Shown here piece after piece: positions 7,362-15,532 of a DNA stretch of 15,532 nucleotides. Source of the DNA: Opitutales bacterium. GTDB taxonomy: Bacteria; Verrucomicrobiota; Verrucomicrobiia; Opitutales; JAJFLR01. Position numbers and translations under genes: made by a program. The notes beneath the pieces were generated by a model. That model made no database searches. It was not told the origin of the DNA and saw only the letters and a list, made by a program, of their open reading frames with translations. The DNA lies in assembly GCA_021772565.1 (NCBI GenBank), contig JAJFLR010000001.1, positions 1 through 15,532 on the forward strand, read 5' to 3'. The first letter of the stretch is position 1. The number at the start of each line of letters is the position of its first letter.

Positions 7362-7419
7362 AAAAACGATTTCACAATGATGGTAATTCTACTATAAACA
7401 AATCGGAATCCATCTCTAC

Positions 7420-8066
7420 CTTGTCATCGCAAGGAGTATAAGGAGTCGACTTCGCCATAGTAACCTATGGCTACAACGGCTGGACGCGGCCATCCATCAT
7501 TTTTCTTTATTCTACATAGATTGCCACATCCTGATTTTACATCGGGATTCGCAATGACAACTACTTTGTCATCGCGAGGAGTGTAACGACGTGGCGATCC
7601 ATGATTATTCTTGTCATCGTGAGGAATGAAAATGAGCCGACTCCGCCATAGTAGCATATGGCTACGACGGCTGGACGCGGCGATCCATCACTTTTTCTTT
7701 GTTCTACATAGATTGCCACATCCCGATTTACATCGGGACTCGCAATGACAACTGTGTTTGACTTTGTCATCGCGAGGAGTGTAACGACGCGGCGATCCAT
7801 GCCTTTTCTTTATTCTACATAGATTGCCACATCCCGATTTTCATCGAGACTCGCAATGACAACCTCTTTTTCACTTTGTCATCGCGAGGAGGAAACGACG
7901 TGGCGATCCATCCATACCTTGTCATCGCGAGGAGTGAAACGACGTGGCGATCCATGCCTTTTCTTTATTCTACATAGATTGCCACATCCCGATTTACATC
8001 GGAACTCGCAATGACAACTGTGTTTGACTTTGTCATCGCGAGGAGTGTAACGACGCGGCGATCCAT
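7420..8066. repeat. Tandem composite repeat array, part 1 (modules A/B plus two A+C units), upstream flank of the GIY-YIG cassette
   Basis: Module B copies (tctacatagattgccacatcccgatttacatcgggactcgcaatgacaa) start at 7511, 7703, 7814 and 7969. Module A copies (tttgtcatcgcgaggagtg[t/a]aacgacg[c/t]ggcgatccat) lie at 7565-7602, 7763-7800, 7875-7911, 7919-7955 and 8029-8066. A+C variants with an inserted palindrome 'gccatagta(acc/gca)tatggc' lie at 7420-7496 and 7611-7688. Linkers are 'c(a/c)cttttctttRttc' (A to B) and T-rich 11-12-mers (B to A). Confidence 0.9.
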
Positions 8067-8077
8067 GATTATTAATT

Positions 8078-8374
8078 TCACAGATACCAATCTTTCGAGT
8101 AGTCTTCCCACTGATGGTTTATTTTTTCAATAAGTTTCAATTTATTTTTCCTTGATCCAGATTTAATTTGTTTCTCCCTCGATATAGCGTTATGAATATC
8201 GTGAAATACTTCAAAATATACAAGTTTTGTTAAATTATACTTTTTTGAAAAACCATCATAAGACTTATTTTTATGTTCCCACATACGTTTAATAAGACTC
8301 TTAGTAACACCAGTATATAGAGTACCATTTTTCTTATTACATATTATATAGACATAGTAATAGTGTCTTTGCAT
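8078..8374 (-). CDS. Small GIY-YIG nuclease-family protein (YhbQ/UPF0213-like, single-domain)
   Basis: 98 aa. 'YYVYIICNKKNGTLYTGVTKSLIKRMWEHK' contains the GIY-YIG motifs (YxVYII ... GTLYTGVT ... R..EH). The downstream part 'LVYFEVF...REKQIKSGSRKNKLKLI' completes the domain. The gene sits in a roughly 375-bp unique segment (8067-8440) flanked on both sides by the tandem repeat array. Confidence 0.85.
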   Translation of the reverse strand: MQRHYYYVYIICNKKNGTLYTGVTKSLIKRMWEHKNKSYDGFSKKYNLTKLVYFEVFHDIHNAISREKQIKSGSRKNKLKLIEKINHQWEDYSKDWYL

Positions 8375-8440
8375 AATTTTGGGAGAAAATTAACTTGATA
8401 ATTCCACACTTAATATTGAAATTTTTATGTCAATAAAAGT

Positions 8441-9098
8441 CTACATAGATTGCCACATCCCGATTTTACATCGGGATTCGCAATGACAATCACTTTTCCA
8501 CTTTGTCATCGCGAGGAGTGTAACGACGCGGCGATCCATCCATACCTTGTCATCGCGAGGAGTGAAACGACACGGCGATCCATCACTTTTTCTTTGTTCT
8601 ACATGGATTGCCACATCCCGATTTACATCGGGACTCGCAATGACAACCTCTTTTTCACTTTGTCATCGCGAGGAGGAAACGACGCGGCGATCCATCACTT
8701 TTCTTTATTCTACATGGATTGCCACGCCCCGATCAAACATCGGGACTCGCAATGACAATCGATTTTCCACTTTGTCATCGCGAGGAGTGAAACGACACGG
8801 CGATCCATCACTTTTTCTTTGTTCTACATAGATTGCCACATCCCGATTTACATCGAGACTCGCAATGACAATCGATTTTATTTTGTCATCGCGAGGAGTG
8901 AAACGACGCGGTGATCCATCACTTTTTCTTTGTTCTACATGGATTGCCACGCCCCGATCAAACATCGGGACTCGCAATGACAACCTCTTTTCAACTTTGT
9001 CATCGCGAGGAGTGAAACGACGCGGCGATCCATCACTTTTTCTTTATTCTACATAGATTGCCACGCCCCAATTTTACATTGGGACTCGCAATGACAAT
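8441..9098. repeat. Tandem composite repeat array, part 2 (six B copies and seven A copies), downstream flank of the GIY-YIG cassette
   Basis: B copies lie at 8441-8490, 8599-8647, 8710-8759, 8824-8872, 8935-8983 and 9049-9098. A copies lie at 8503-8540, 8548-8584, 8660-8696, 8772-8809, 8883-8920 and 8997-9034. B-to-B spacing is 111 or 114 nt for simple units. Variants of the B hairpin are cccgat-ttac-atcggg, cccgat-caaac-atcggg and cccaat-ttttac-attggg. Confidence 0.9.
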
Positions 9099-9179
9099 TT
9101 GAATTTATAAAAAATACTGACTGGTAAAATTCGTCATTACTCTTATAGGCTAAGAAATATAAAATAAAAACTATATCAG

Positions 9180-12281: not shown

Positions 12282-12467
12282 TATTATTTATTTGGTTTTG
12301 GTATTTATGTAAAATATTCTAATGTAGTAATTATTGAAAAAATGCACCAATATTTAAATTTTAATATATTATTTATGTCAAGTCTGTTTAATATTATTTA
12401 TAGCAATTGCCAAAATGTATTCGTTTATATTGAGCATAGACTAACGTTCTGTTCGAATTAAATAGTC

Positions 12468-12625
12468 ATGGATCGCTTTGTCCAGCCGTCGTAGCCATTG
12501 GCTACTATGGCGGAGTCGGTTCACGTTGTTCCTCACGATGACAAAGTTGTGCGATTGTCATGTTTTCTCGTGATCATGTCGTCCCGATAAATCGGCACTC
12601 GGTAGCGAGACCTGCTGAGGCAGGT
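12468..12625. repeat. Inverted solo copy of array modules (rc of C, rc of A-head, rc of B-end, rc of D) followed by a short palindrome
   Basis: rc(12468-12519) = ccgactccgccatagtagccaatggctacgacggctggacaaagcgatccat, which matches the A+C unit at 7636-7688. rc(12530-12546) = ctttgtcatcgtgaggaa, which matches 7610-7626. 12553-12562 'cgattgtcat' is the rc of the B-end/linker 'atgacaatcg'. rc(12576-12609) = ctcgctaccgagtgccgatttatcgggacgacatg, which is module D (compare 1201-1245). 12610-12625 'acctgctgaggcaggt' is a perfect hairpin. Confidence 0.6.
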
Positions 12626-12834
12626 CGCGGTAATCTATCTAATTTTTGATTTGAGTTGATATTTGATTACAGTATAATCATTCAGTTTATTACTTCTGAT
12701 ATTTAAAATATACGTATGCATTTATGGCAATCGCTATAGTTTGAAAATTTATAAAAAGATAACCCGTCTGAGAATATATTTTTGATATCATACCTCAGAA
12801 GGGTTCTTTTTTTTTGATCTGAAAACATTCATAA

Positions 12835-13938
12835 TCAGATCAGTTTTGTGATACGATCGGTTAAGCCTTGCTCACCGAGAACCACGTTTAGTTTACTTGT
12901 TTTAGCTACGGTTTCCAGAACTTCCAACTCACGAAGTTTCATGAGAACAGGATTTGCCTCTATTAACTTGGCAGTGTTCATTTGAGAACGCATAGCTGCA
13001 GTTTCTTCACGACGTTTGATGACATTTGCTTCAGATGCTTTTTGAGCTTCCATAACTTTATTCATCAATTCCTTCATGTCTCCAGGAAGAATAATATCGC
13101 GAATGCCCAGCGCGATAATTTCAACACCGAAGCCTTTTGCTACTGCATCGATATTACGCTTGGTATATTTCGCCAGATCTTCTTTGTCTGCAAGTAGTCC
13201 ATCGAGTACTCGAGTTCCTACTTCAGAACGAAGAGTCAGCTGTGCTTCACGGTACAGCGCTTGAGCAATATCCATAACCTTATCAACAGACTTTTGAGGA
13301 TCAGTGATACGGTAAGTCAGGAGTGCATTCAAACGCATAGTTACTTTATCCTGGGTCATAATTTCCTGACCGGAAATATCCATAATCTGCTCACGTTGAT
13401 CAACCAAGTAAATTTTTACTTTGGCTGCATCTTTCCAAAATGCATTTTTTCCGGAAGGAAGAATTTCGGTGAATTCACCATTGACGTATAGAACGCCAAC
13501 TTTTCCATCAGGAATATCAGTAATATTTAGAAAGACATTCGCAGAAACATTTTTTAGAATAGTTTCCAGGTCTTGCCGTTTTAGTTGTAGTGCATCAGTT
13601 TTAATAACTGTGACATCAACCTTACGGAATTTTGTCCATAGACCATACAGGCCAGGACCCACGATTTTTTCGAAACGATTGTCCACCCAGACAAGAGCAC
13701 GTTCATTATCCTTTAGGTCAATGAACTTTGCTTTGTCGTTCAACAATACGCTACGAGCGAGCTGATCGATTTCTACAGAATCGATCCAGGGACTTCGCTG
13801 GCTAACAACTTCCACTTTAACTTTACTGCGGAAGCTGAAGAACCAACGCCATCCTTCGCTTACAAGATCGATCAATTTACCATTCTTGTAAACCAGCCCG
13901 AACTCATCATATTTAATATATTTTCGGAATAGGATCAT
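12835..13938 (-). CDS. SPFH/band-7 domain protein (stomatin/prohibitin/HflC-like), apparently without N-terminal membrane anchor
   Basis: 367 aa. The central region 'QDKVTMRLNALLTYRITDPQKSVDKV...REAQLTLRSEVGTRVLDGLLADKEDL...GVEIIALGIRDIILPGDMKELMNKVMEAQKASEA' matches the SPFH core plus a C-terminal coiled-coil. There is a strong SD sequence (aaggag) upstream. No hydrophobic TM segment is present in the first 60 residues. Confidence 0.8.
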   Translation of the reverse strand: MILFRKYIKYDEFGLVYKNGKLIDLVSEGWRWFFSFRSKVKVEVVSQRSPWIDSVEIDQLARSVLLNDKAKFIDLKDNERALVWVDNRFEKIVGPGLYGLWTKFRKVDVTVIKTDALQLKRQDLETILKNVSANVFLNITDIPDGKVGVLYVNGEFTEILPSGKNAFWKDAAKVKIYLVDQREQIMDISGQEIMTQDKVTMRLNALLTYRITDPQKSVDKVMDIAQALYREAQLTLRSEVGTRVLDGLLADKEDLAKYTKRNIDAVAKGFGVEIIALGIRDIILPGDMKELMNKVMEAQKASEANVIKRREETAAMRSQMNTAKLIEANPVLMKLRELEVLETVAKTSKLNVVLGEQGLTDRITKLI

Positions 13939-14306
13939 TTTTTCTCCTTGGTTTTAGTTTATGTTGTAGTTCACACCTCATTATTAAGATGCGAAAGTAT
14001 TAAAAGAGTGATCCTCGGGAAGCATTCGAGACCTTGATCCCATCAATATTACGGAATCATTTTTTAGAAAAGTATCAGCTTTGGTTTTTGAAAGGATAGA
14101 AATACAAAATTGTCTAAACAGTTTTTGTTTTCAATCGAACCTATTACGATTTCAATAATCGAATTAGTAATAGCAATCAATGCGCAAGCTTCTACCAAAC
14201 GGTATCCAAATGATTCTGGTAAGTTTGATGTTGTAATCGATATAAAATCGATTGACAGATCTCAGTAACGTTAACTTCCCTTGGATCGTATTTGAGCCTG
14301 CAAAGC

Positions 14307-14331
14307 AGGCAGTTAAGGGATTTGAACCCTC
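14307..14331 (-). other. Isolated tRNA 3' fragment (T-arm plus acceptor 3' strand, GAGGG-TTCAAAT-CCCTT-AACTGCC-T) with no matching 5' half
   Basis: The minus-strand sense sequence contains a canonical T-loop TTCAAAT with a 5-bp stem and a 7-nt acceptor strand. No complementary 5' acceptor (GGCAGTT) is found upstream. It is followed by the hairpin gcctgctttgcaggc. Confidence 0.4.
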
Positions 14332-14352
14332 GGTTTTCCACTTTTACCTTAG

Positions 14353-14424
14353 TCGGATACACGGGATTCGAACCCGCCACAGCTTGATTCTAAGTCAAGT
14401 GCTCTACCACTGAGCTAATATCGC
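14353..14424 (-). tRNA. tRNA-like gene, anticodon UAG, class-I (short variable arm). Acceptor stem has 2 terminal mismatches, so it is a possible pseudogene or atypical tRNA
   Basis: Minus-strand sense: GCGATAT-TA-GCTC-AGTGGTA-GAGC-A-CTTGA-CTTAGAA-TCAAG-CTGTG-GCGGG-TTCGAAT-CCCGT-GTATCCG-A. The D-, anticodon- and T-arms are canonical (T-loop TTCGAAT, U33, A37). In the acceptor stem, pairs 3-7 are fine but 1-72 is G/G and 2-71 is C/C. Confidence 0.5.
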
Positions 14425-14821
14425 GTGTTTTCACGATGCTTTCGATGCCATTGACAGAATACAATAACATAACGGAATACTCAAAACGAATTTCCGACAT
14501 ATTGCACTGTTGGACGGCAACATGAAATTGTACTCCGACCCTTACCGTCACATATTACCCGGATTATGCATTAGGTTAGATGTTTAGTTTGTGAAATTAA
14601 TGACAAAGGAGCGTATTCTAATACGTGACTGCAGTCCTTGATTGAAGCACACTGAAAATGTAGCCAAAACGTTTTTCAAAAATTTTAATTTTTGTTTTCT
14701 ATATACTATTAGAAAACATTCTGAATAATGAACAATTACAGAATAATTTTGAAAAACGTGGTGCAGAATTCGGGTTGATAACGTGGTGTGCCAACCCTAA
14801 CACTACCGGAGCAAAAATATT

Positions 14822-14891
14822 TGGAATGGAAGGATTCGAACCTGGGATTAAAGATTAACAATCTCCTGTGTTACCACTACACCATCTTGCT
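14822..14891 (-). pseudogene. tRNA-Asn(GUU)-like gene with 3' end (T-stem 3' strand plus acceptor) replaced by unrelated sequence ending CCA
   Basis: Minus-strand sense: AGCAAGA-TG-GTGT-AGTGGTA-ACAC-A-GGAGA-TTGTTAA-TCTTT-AATC-CCAGG-TTCGAAT-CCTTCCATTCCA. The D-arm and anticodon arm (anticodon GUU) are good. T-stem 5' CCAGG has no partner (CCTTC), and the 3' tail does not pair with the 5' acceptor AGCAAGA. Confidence 0.45.
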
Positions 14892-14901
14892 AAAATAAAT
14901 T

Positions 14902-14975
14902 TAACCGAGGAGGGATTCGAACCCCCATCAAACTGTTTCTAAAACAGTCGCCTTTATCCGTTGGGCTACTCGGCT
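14902..14975 (-). tRNA. tRNA, anticodon UAG, class-I fold (5-nt variable loop), identity uncertain (nominally Leu by anticodon)
   Basis: Minus-strand sense: AGCCGAG-TA-GCCC-AACGGATAA-AGGC-G-ACTGT-TTTAGAA-ACAGT-TTGAT-GGGGG-TTCGAAT-CCCTC-CTCGGTT-A. All four stems pair (7/7 acceptor including one G·U, 5/5 anticodon stem, 5/5 T-stem including one G·U). The T-loop is TTCGAAT, with U33 and A37. It is 74 nt and CCA is not encoded. Confidence 0.65.
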
Positions 14976-15121
14976 GAAAATTGGTTGGCTAGCGACAATT
15001 AGAACTCCCTATTAACGACAATTAAAAATCCCTACCATTGTTTTGTCAAAAAGCCTGGAGCTTTTTGGCGGAACGTAATCAGAGTTAAGGGATGATATCT
15101 CATCAACAATACCGAAAAATT

Positions 15122-15532
15122 ATGAAGCATTATAATATAACTGGAAAAATCAGCACTACTGCTGTTAAAGTAGGTGTAGATATTAAAACAGCTCGAAAGT
15201 ATATTGGAGGGGCAAAGTCACCAATTGAGCTTAAGCCGCCGCGTGATTGGGTAACCCGTTCTAATCCATTCGATGGTGTTTGGCACAAGGTGCAAAGTTG
15301 GCTTGAGGTGGATCCTCAATTACAATCGACCAGTATCTTTGAGCAATTGTCTCGAGAGTTTCCAGGTCGTTTTGAGTCGGGGCAACTACGCAGTTTGCAG
15401 CGAAAGATAAAAAGATGGCGAATCGATAATGGCGTGATGCCGGCCAAGCCAATTTATTTTGAGCAGATACATCTGCCGGGTCGGCTATTGGAGTTGGATT
15501 GGTTTAGTCCAAAGAGTTTTGAGGTGAGCATT
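15122..15532 (+). mobile_element. IS21-family transposase IstA-like N-terminus (partial, runs off the 3' window edge; absent from the ORF track because there is no in-window stop)
   Basis: The reading frame from ATG 15122 is open to the window end: MKHYNITGKISTTAVKVGVDIKTARKYI...KPIYFEQIHLPGRLLELDWFSPKSFEV. It has an N-terminal HTH resembling IstA 'IAxxLGVSRNTVRKYL'. The segment 'YFEQIHLPGRLLELDW' fits the IstA 'RFETxPGxQxQVDWG' motif that precedes the DDE core. Confidence 0.55.

Follow-up and report, generated by a model that had tools for sequence, protein, structure and literature searches.

The 15,532-nucleotide (nt) stretch of DNA analysed here, referred to as the window, comprises positions 1 to 15,532 of contig JAJFLR010000001.1 of an Opitutales bacterium (Verrucomicrobiota; assembly GCA_021772565.1). 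In a gene context of 15.5 kb that looks like a chromosome, it contains a cluster of tRNA-like genes, which lies upstream of a gene for a Band-7/SPFH protein and is bounded on its other side by an insertion sequence (IS) of the IS21 family. Two members of the cluster, here called t1 and t2, share the anticodon UAG, and both have the short variable loop of class-I tRNAs. We conclude below that t1 is probably a leucine tRNA without the long extra arm, of the type carried by phages and accessory tRNA arrays, and that t2 is a putative Band-7-associated tRNA-like RNA (b7a-tRNA), in which the UAG triplet would have no decoding function. The features of the region, from the insertion sequence to the end of the Band-7 gene, are as follows.

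14983-15532, plus strand: left end of an IS21-family insertion, some 8-10 nt from the 5′ end of t1 (transposase N-terminus, NCBIfam transpos_IS21, 8e-13, at 15101-15532)
14902-14975, minus strand: t1, an intact class-I (short-arm) tRNA-Leu with anticodon UAG, 74 nt, without an encoded CCA (Rfam; ARAGORN, Leu(tag))
14818-14894, minus strand: t3, a degenerate tRNA with loop UUGUUAA and anticodon GUU, probably an array pseudogene (Rfam; covariance model R2, described below)
14353-14424, minus strand: t2, a putative Band-7-associated tRNA-like RNA, or b7a-tRNA (model R2, position, acceptor stub)
14292-14350, minus strand: t4, a tRNA fragment consisting of a weak D-like hairpin and a T arm, GAGGG-UUCAAAU-CCCUU, followed by the hairpin GCCUGC-UUU-GCAGGC (sequence, fold)
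13939-14352, minus strand: leader of about 410 nt, from the b7a-tRNA to the start of the Band-7 gene, with a ribosome-binding site, AAGGAG, preceding the ATG (list of open reading frames (ORFs), sequence)
12835-13938, minus strand: gene for a Band-7/SPFH protein of 367 amino acids (Pfam Band_7, 1.3e-28)

ARAGORN, which an earlier note on this DNA had proposed as a check, found exactly two tRNA genes in the window, at 14354-14423 and 14902-14975 on the minus strand, each with the anticodon tag. The Rfam tRNA model matched both over its full length (positions 1-71), with 60.2 bits (E 3.8e-11) for t1 and 51.8 bits (E 7.6e-09) for t2. The register in which that note had read two class-I cloverleaves with UAG anticodons (loops UUUAGAA and CUUAGAA) is therefore right. 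The variable loops are indeed 5 nt long in both genes (UUGAU in t1 and CUGUG in t2), and the two are, as first noted, not copies of each other: their bodies differ, and the D-loops are AACGGAUAA in t1 and AGUGGUA in t2. What the note had missed are the non-standard pairs of t2 at 1:72 (G.G) and 2:71 (C.C), the degenerate t3 and the fragment t4. An amber suppressor on the opposite strand was also considered, as the reverse complement of YUUAGAA would give a CUA-type loop, but the canonical T arm and the Rfam scores settle the strand as minus, and this reading was rejected.

In t1, all seven acceptor pairs are formed, and the gene has A73, A14, A15, G18G19, U48, C13.A22 and a D arm of 17 nt; the long arm of class-II tRNAs is absent. 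It thus carries the leucine signature, that is, A15:U48, a non-Watson–Crick 13:22 combination and A73. Isotype-specific hidden Markov models (HMMs), with a cross-validated accuracy of 75%, ranked short Leu first for t1 when the anticodon was masked (46.6 and 38.9 bits), and Leu tRNAs make up 27 of its 40 nearest neighbours. After G19, t1 reads A-U-A-A in place of the common U-A-G, and the numbering of the extra base is ambiguous at this point, so that the assignment of A20a is ambiguous too. The earlier note had contrasted the short loops with the long extra arm of bacterial tRNA-Leu. The premise that a bacterial-type leucyl-tRNA synthetase (LeuRS) requires this arm does not stand for the Escherichia coli enzyme, which requires A73 (crucial to leucine identity), A15-U48, G18G19 and A20a, and for which neither the long arm nor the anticodon is needed (PMC9976931). 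As LeuRS reads A73, A15:U48 and the corner formed by the D-loop and T-loop, and not the long arm or the anticodon, t1 would be expected, if transcribed, to be processed, to receive its CCA end and to be charged by LeuRS; it would then read CUA and CUG, and possibly all CUN codons, as leucine.

Viral contigs were searched with the pattern YTTAGAA-N10-GNGGGTTCGAATCCC, which admits only UAG loops that are combined with a 5-nt variable loop and a canonical T arm, and at least 120 contigs matched. The results that follow hold for the matches listed, of which 120 out of 123 were called as tRNAs of 72-79 nt by ARAGORN (126 when the window's own Logan copies are included). For comparison with t1 we used the 90 unique sequences in this set. 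All 90 have A73, while A15:U48, C.A or G.A at 13:22, and a complete 7/7 acceptor stem are each present in 87; all stems covary, and the D arms, of 16-19 nt, have the D-loop of E. coli tRNA-Leu (AAUUGGUAGA). Every feature common to the set is present in t1. We also surveyed the 1,697 tRNAs of the phage arrays among the same matches, and found the combination of A15:U48, non-Watson–Crick 13:22 and A73 in 146 of 152 short-arm and 52 of 55 long-arm Leu tRNAs, but in no more than 19% of the members of any other isotype. The same type of tRNA is annotated as tRNA-Leu in T5-like, Felix-O1-like, Streptomyces, Gordonia and Mycobacterium phages. One of the T5-like phages, OSYSP (MF402939.1), has two tRNA-Leu genes only, both short-arm and 77 nt long; when a tRNA-Leu of this genome is given the anticodon CGA, it inserts leucine at TCG codons in E. 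coli (PMC13596443). A T5-like phage tRNA-Leu of the short-arm type is thus reported to act as a leucine tRNA in that host whatever its anticodon.

The gene in the window shares with these phage tRNAs the 5-nt variable loop, A73, A15:U48, the non-Watson–Crick 13:22 and an E. coli-Leu-like D-loop, and differs from them in lying on a bacterial-looking chromosome segment, in lacking an encoded CCA, and in having A1-U72, G2.U71 and AUAA after G19. Animal mitochondrial tRNA-Leu, which is recognized via A73 and A14 (PMC9976931), resembles t1 in having no long arm; t1, in contrast, has fully canonical D- and T-loops (GG and UUCGAAU), and its context is bacterial or phage. We therefore conclude, from sequence comparison, that t1 is in all probability a bona fide short-arm tRNA-Leu(UAG) of the phage and accessory-array type. 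The suggestion made in the earlier note, that the two genes are array tRNAs of a phage or mobile element, thus fits t1, which can be placed in a large short-arm tRNA-Leu(UAG) family of phage arrays, and does not fit t2. More generally, a 2023 review of tRNA identity states that the long arm of tRNA-Leu is kept in all organisms other than in animal mitochondria (PMC9976931); contrary to that statement, leucine tRNAs that lack this arm are widespread among phages and in accessory arrays in the survey made here. In the literature we found no paper on short-arm phage tRNA-Leu as such.

Two further observations concern the length of the arm in other leucine tRNAs. In the phage arrays among the matches listed (loci L004-L123), Leu(UAA) and Leu(CAA) are also mostly short-arm, with median lengths of 79 and 77 nt, respectively, and the Ser tRNAs measure 84-97 nt. 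Loss of the arm can also be seen within one array lineage, where homologous tRNA-Leu(CAG) genes are armless and 75 nt long at one locus (L153, 6574-6648) and carry a short extra arm, at 84 nt, at another (L135, 6966-7049).

The second UAG gene, t2, has a different body. It contains G15, G48, a C13-G22 Watson–Crick pair and a D arm of 15 nt, so that A73 is the only part of the leucine signature to be found in it. Five of the seven acceptor pairs are formed, and G1.G72 and C2.C71 make up the remainder of the stem; the same two mismatches occur in an element from a Planctomycetota locus (L147). The minimum-free-energy fold of t2 is nevertheless a cloverleaf. With the anticodon masked, the best isotype HMMs were Asn (42.5 bits), Lys (40.5 bits) and Pro (39.8 bits). 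The 5′ end of t2 lies 486 nt upstream of the start codon of the Band-7 gene (13938), on the same strand. A covariance model (R2) built from 46 homologous elements, with the window left out, gave t2 a score of 74.4 bits over its full length, compared with 54.5 bits for t1 and 22.4 bits for t3. A pattern specific to t2, GCTCAGTGGTAGAGC-N6-YTTAGAA, matched nothing in the viral contigs, among which no phage tRNA pairs the t2 D arm with a UAG loop. Only two metagenome matches to this pattern were obtained, both from soil (L204, 320-393, and L205, 7109-7182); each is a 74-nt class-I tRNA(UAG) close to a cox3-like ORF, and both were set aside as unrelated and mitochondrion-like.

The position of t2 relative to the Band-7 gene recurs in other genomes. 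We used the Band-7 protein of the window to fetch 80 loci with Band-7 homologues and found with the covariance model that, in 48 of the 52 non-Bacillota loci with enough upstream sequence, the Band-7 homologue is preceded, at a distance of approximately 290-790 nt, by a tRNA-like element of the same orientation. ARAGORN called a class-I tRNA at that position in most loci, nearly always with a different anticodon. An alignment of 37 of these elements (A1) has a consensus cloverleaf with invariant D- and T-loop residues and strongly covarying D, anticodon and T stems; 92% of its cells are paired, and the observed covariation score was reached by none of 500 shuffles. The outer end of the acceptor stem is frayed: positions 1:72, 2:71, 3:70 and 4:69 are unpaired in 16, 22, 12 and 6 of the 37 elements, respectively, whereas the pairs from 5:68 to 7:66 are essentially always formed. 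In contrast, seven of seven acceptor pairs are present in 100 of 112 neighbouring array tRNAs. The anticodon loop is equally free of the usual constraints, as 9 of 47 loops deviate from the 7-nt length, and the 38 that have it show 22 different triplets (NAG being the commonest), with U33 in only 23 and A34 in 14.

In the Bacillota loci, an element was found weakly in four; at loci L182-L203 it is far more divergent, scoring 21-25 bits, and the Band-7/RtcB pair there is preceded by two conserved genes, one encoding a WYL-domain protein (413 amino acids) and one a protein of 303 amino acids without a Pfam match. At two other loci, b7a-like elements stand in tandem, two or three before a single Band-7 gene (L130, 9166-9549, and L177, 1113-1276; 56-69 bits each with model R1). 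Loci L125 and L126 share the motif GTGTGGCG(G/T)TTCGACCG, with GG-N10-GC spacing, approximately 90-120 nt upstream of the Band-7 start and thus between the b7a element and the gene. This motif is a candidate sigma-54 promoter, which could mean that the b7a element and the Band-7 gene are transcribed separately in loci of the RtcR type.

Band-7-associated tRNAs have been described before, as a prediction. According to the quotation given by Wang et al. (2018, bioRxiv 10.1101/312249), Burroughs and Aravind (NAR 2016) predicted a b7a-tRNA in RtcB RNA-repair operons; the same preprint describes it as experimentally unvalidated and possibly redundant with the tRNA-like Y RNA YrlA, for which the roles of cofactor and of competitive inhibitor of an anticodon nuclease have been proposed (PMC7790460). 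By ORF clustering, with confirmation in Pfam, the gene for the RNA ligase RtcB directly follows the Band-7 gene in 21 of our 80 loci, and genes for the sigma-54 activator RtcR and the nucleotidyltransferase RlaP are present in seven and eight loci, respectively. Because its position relative to the Band-7 gene and the RtcB, RtcR and RlaP neighbours of the homologous genes match the described system, t2 is best identified as a predicted b7a-tRNA, by comparison with the description quoted in 10.1101/312249, and its UAG would not be a decoding anticodon. The possibility raised in the earlier note that the genes are non-translational tRNA-like RNAs therefore suits t2, as a Band-7-associated element, and not t1; its further proposal, that of tRNAs of another identity with a mutated anticodon, is not the best description of either.

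The resemblance of t2 to the RtcB-operon elements lies in its being a tRNA-like gene beside a Band-7/SPFH gene whose homologues are followed by RtcB, RlaP and RtcR. It differs in that the window has none of these three genes, and in that the element follows a tRNA array both in the window and in Planctomycetota. YrlA, encoded in the rsr-yrlBA-rtcBA operon of Salmonella (RF02553), is likewise a tRNA mimic beside a scaffold protein and RtcB, and is proposed to be a repair cofactor or nuclease decoy (10.1101/312249, PMC7790460); unlike t2, it has a Ro60-binding stem in place of the anticodon arm, and its partner is Rsr rather than a Band-7 protein. We also considered reading t2 and t4 together as a YrlA RNA, as RF02553 gave a match at 14303-14405 (minus strand) that spans the T arm of t2 and t4, and rejected this on its score: the full-length match is weak, at 17.9 bits where the gathering score is 69 (E of about 1), although the family belongs to the right biological neighbourhood. 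The Band-7 protein of the window itself gave HflK-like matches below the cutoff, and the idea that it is a known defence protein was dropped, PADLOC having returned no hit.

Ten loci, mostly from Planctomycetota, place the b7a/Band-7 pair at the end of a longer series of tRNAs. In these, between 3 and 23 further tRNAs on the same strand precede the pair, short-arm Leu tRNAs among them, and the series often ends in Arg, Arg, Cys. The whole arrangement also occurs on a viral contig of 94 kb (L209). Here an array of 35 tRNAs, with Leu(tag), Leu(caa) and Leu(gag) of the short type among them, is followed by Arg-Arg-Arg-Cys, a b7a element (77 bits) and a Band-7 gene whose product is 53% identical to that of the window; a gpA-type terminase gene lies about 5.5 kb beyond. 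A second viral contig (L210) carries a b7a element and a Band-7 gene together with a large serine recombinase. A search of the viral contigs with the single Band-7 protein returned nothing, and an alignment-based profile search was needed to find L209. The run of tRNA-Arg(UCG), tRNA-Arg(GCG) and tRNA-Cys(GCA) is found before the b7a element in many Planctomycetota loci (L125-L179) even where there is no larger array, approximately 650-1200 nt upstream of the Band-7 gene, and the same run closes the 35-tRNA array of L209.

From this synteny, the simplest reading of the window is that it holds the decayed 3′ end, truncated by IS21, of what appears to be a mobile cassette in which an accessory tRNA array is followed by a b7a-tRNA and then by a Band-7 gene. 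The gene t1 would be the last intact member of the array, t3 a dead one and t2 the b7a-tRNA, with the Band-7 gene next; on the downstream side the cassette is flanked by copies of an abundant repeat family of approximately 112 nt. The IS21 insertion upstream of t1 means that whatever preceded t1 has been cut off. Accessory tRNA arrays on mobile elements are reported from mycobacteria, Firmicutes and, as the trn operon, cyanobacteria (Tran et al. 2016; Santamaria-Gomez et al. 2021). The window resembles them in having a same-strand tRNA cluster with atypical and degenerate members beside IS elements, and differs in that only one of its members is intact. We know of no description that links accessory tRNA arrays to the b7a-tRNA/Band-7 pair.

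The earlier note had attached importance to the UAG shared by t1 and t2, and this importance is not borne out. The triplet is hypervariable in the family to which t2 belongs, and among the approximately 11 loci that have both a b7a element and an array, the b7a triplet equals an array anticodon in two, namely the window and L135, which is about the number expected by chance from the sizes of the arrays. A match between the b7a and array anticodons was accordingly dropped as a general rule. It seems most likely that the shared UAG is a coincidence, because the rate of matches is about that of chance and because the locus was picked for the match. One could imagine instead that the cassette is a mobile counter-measure to tRNA-cutting toxins and an alternative to RtcB repair, which replaces damaged tRNAs rather than religating them, with the b7a RNA as bait or sensor whose loop is tuned to the nuclease of each lineage, and that t1 and t2 both carry UAG in response to a nuclease specific for tRNA-Leu(UAG); we regard this as quite improbable.

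Taking these results together, we consider it highly likely that t1 is an array-type short-arm tRNA-Leu and t2 a non-decoding b7a-tRNA in a decayed cassette. A number of observations nevertheless weigh against this interpretation. The covariance-model scores overlap, with 57-84 bits for the b7a elements and up to about 71 bits for some ordinary host tRNAs; as the scores alone do not separate the two, membership in the b7a family rests on position, the acceptor stub and the variability of the loop. The closest relatives of the Band-7 protein, from Verrucomicrobiota, Planctomycetota and their allies (PVC), are only approximately 50-53% identical to it, and there is no close relative. By tblastn, RtcB, RtcR and RlaP are all absent from the 15.5-kb window, so that any link to RNA repair is indirect here; most Planctomycetota loci likewise have no RtcB. 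In t1, the position aligned to 20a is U rather than A, and A37 replaces the usual G37, for which reason neither efficient charging nor maintenance of the reading frame is guaranteed. The IS21 end, moreover, lies so close to the 5′ end of t1 (approximately 8-10 nt) that the native promoter of t1 must be gone, and a simple scan of the cluster for promoters and terminators gave nothing convincing and was uninformative.

These last points raise the question of whether t1 is an intact but silent relic of an array, left without a promoter by the insertion of IS21 and playing no part in translation. The nearby IS21 end, the lack of any promoter-like site found in the cluster and the degenerate state of t3 next door would all fit, but t1 shows no structural defect (it has the full acceptor stem, every position of the tertiary signature and 60.2 bits), the same t1 allele is fixed across three samples, and outward transcription from IS ends is possible. 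We think this reading doubtful, while granting it a real chance. Far less credit can be given to the opposite view, in which t1 and t2 are both ordinary, functional tRNA-Leu(UAG) isoacceptors that have lost the long arm. It is true that both exceed the Rfam gathering threshold for tRNA and are called tRNA-Leu by ARAGORN, and that the genes of the window use CUA and CUG at 12.0 and 15.9 per thousand codons; yet t2 has G1.G72, C2.C71 and G15 with G48, and retains only A73 of the leucine signature, its homologues show 22 triplets and frayed acceptor ends, and t1 itself sits in a decayed cluster beside an IS element. We hold this to be very improbable.

For t2, two other explanations have to be weighed. 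It might be a dead tRNA pseudogene of Lys/Asn type, its anticodon drifted to UAG and its place beside the Band-7 gene meaningless, as the best masked-anticodon models (Asn, Lys, Pro), the acceptor-stem mismatches and the company of the pseudogene t3 and the fragment t4 in the same cluster could suggest. This is the least probable of the alternatives considered here: the element recurs, with the same position and orientation, in 48 of 52 loci that span several phyla; three of its arms show strong compensatory change, its D- and T-loops contain invariant residues, and a pseudogene would not be so maintained. Alternatively, t2 might serve mainly as an RNA-processing signal for RNase P, RNase Z or RNase E, which frees the Band-7 mRNA from the array transcript or sets its 5′ end. 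RNase P and RNase Z recognize the T arm and the inner acceptor helix, the parts that are kept in the b7a elements, which also lie between the arrays and the Band-7 ORF on the same strand. However, the element is equally present in loci without an array, a spacer of 290-790 nt separates it from the ORF, and the D arm and a paired anticodon arm are conserved more strictly than a cleavage signal should need, so that this role, too, seems to us unlikely as the principal one.

The remaining members of the cluster are less well preserved. The Rfam tRNA model matches t3 at 14829-14886 with 31.6 bits, over model positions 6-65 only, and t3 lacks an acceptor stem in register. The strands AGCAAGA/UUUUGCU could pair as such a stem but are displaced by approximately 11 extra nt, and the T stem consists of three pairs. 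For t4, R2 gave a local match of 10.4 bits to the T arm and nothing more, and no counterpart of t4 was seen in the leaders of the closest loci. The leader at 13939-14352 contains no convincing ORF by the ORF list and sequence, and the corresponding spacer of related loci measures about 290-640 nt; in neither the window nor the closest loci was there a small ORF, or any leader sequence, that is conserved across this interval. At the IS21 end there are terminal direct repeats of 22 nt (14990-15011 and 15013-15034). Three short Logan contigs, the sole carriers of the adjacent protein, are identical to the window, and Logan contigs identical to it end at 14982 and 15015.

The other genes of the window include an IS66 transposase fragment and genes for DsbD, an outer-membrane efflux protein, UvrD, NadA, a Cys/Met pyridoxal phosphate enzyme and a PEP-CTERM protein. 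The repeat family mentioned above, with units of approximately 112 nt and the core TTGTCATCGCGAGGAG...GACGCGGCGATCCAT...CTCGCAATGACAA, is dense at 7400-9100, where at least 10 copies surround a small GIY-YIG ORF (8078-8374), and is also present at 985-1362 and 12460-12645; other parts of the window hold inverted copies. Downstream of the Band-7 gene, the copy lies where the Logan contigs end, at 12601. Between the Band-7 and PEP-CTERM genes, the 550 nt at 12282-12834 contain no ORF of 60 amino acids or more and belong in part to the repeat family; this is the position that RtcB occupies in other genomes.

As to function, t2 would form an L-shaped tRNA mimic with D, anticodon and T arms, a 4-5-base-pair acceptor stub and a free-running anticodon loop, kept before the Band-7 gene. 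By analogy with the Ro60/Y-RNA (YrlA) particle, such a mimic may bind the Band-7 protein as its RNA cofactor, in a ribonucleoprotein devoted to tRNA damage control, a tentative proposal to which we give somewhat less than an even chance. The particle would act together with the RtcB ligase in loci that have RtcB, or with a supply of spare tRNAs in those that have an array.

Both RNAs are of known kinds, one a short-arm phage-type tRNA-Leu and the other a predicted b7a-tRNA; the instance is new, and the categories are not. There is a consequence for annotation, as gene finders label both t1 and t2 as tRNA-Leu, and the triplet of t2 should not be counted towards decoding capacity or used in claims of recoding. 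What we consider worth following is the wide occurrence of arm-less tRNA-Leu, together with the frayed acceptor end, the hypervariable and apparently unconstrained loop, and the coupling to phage-type tRNA arrays, in Planctomycetota and on a terminase-encoding viral contig that carries the module; the last three would offer handles on what the Band-7 RNA-repair modules do.

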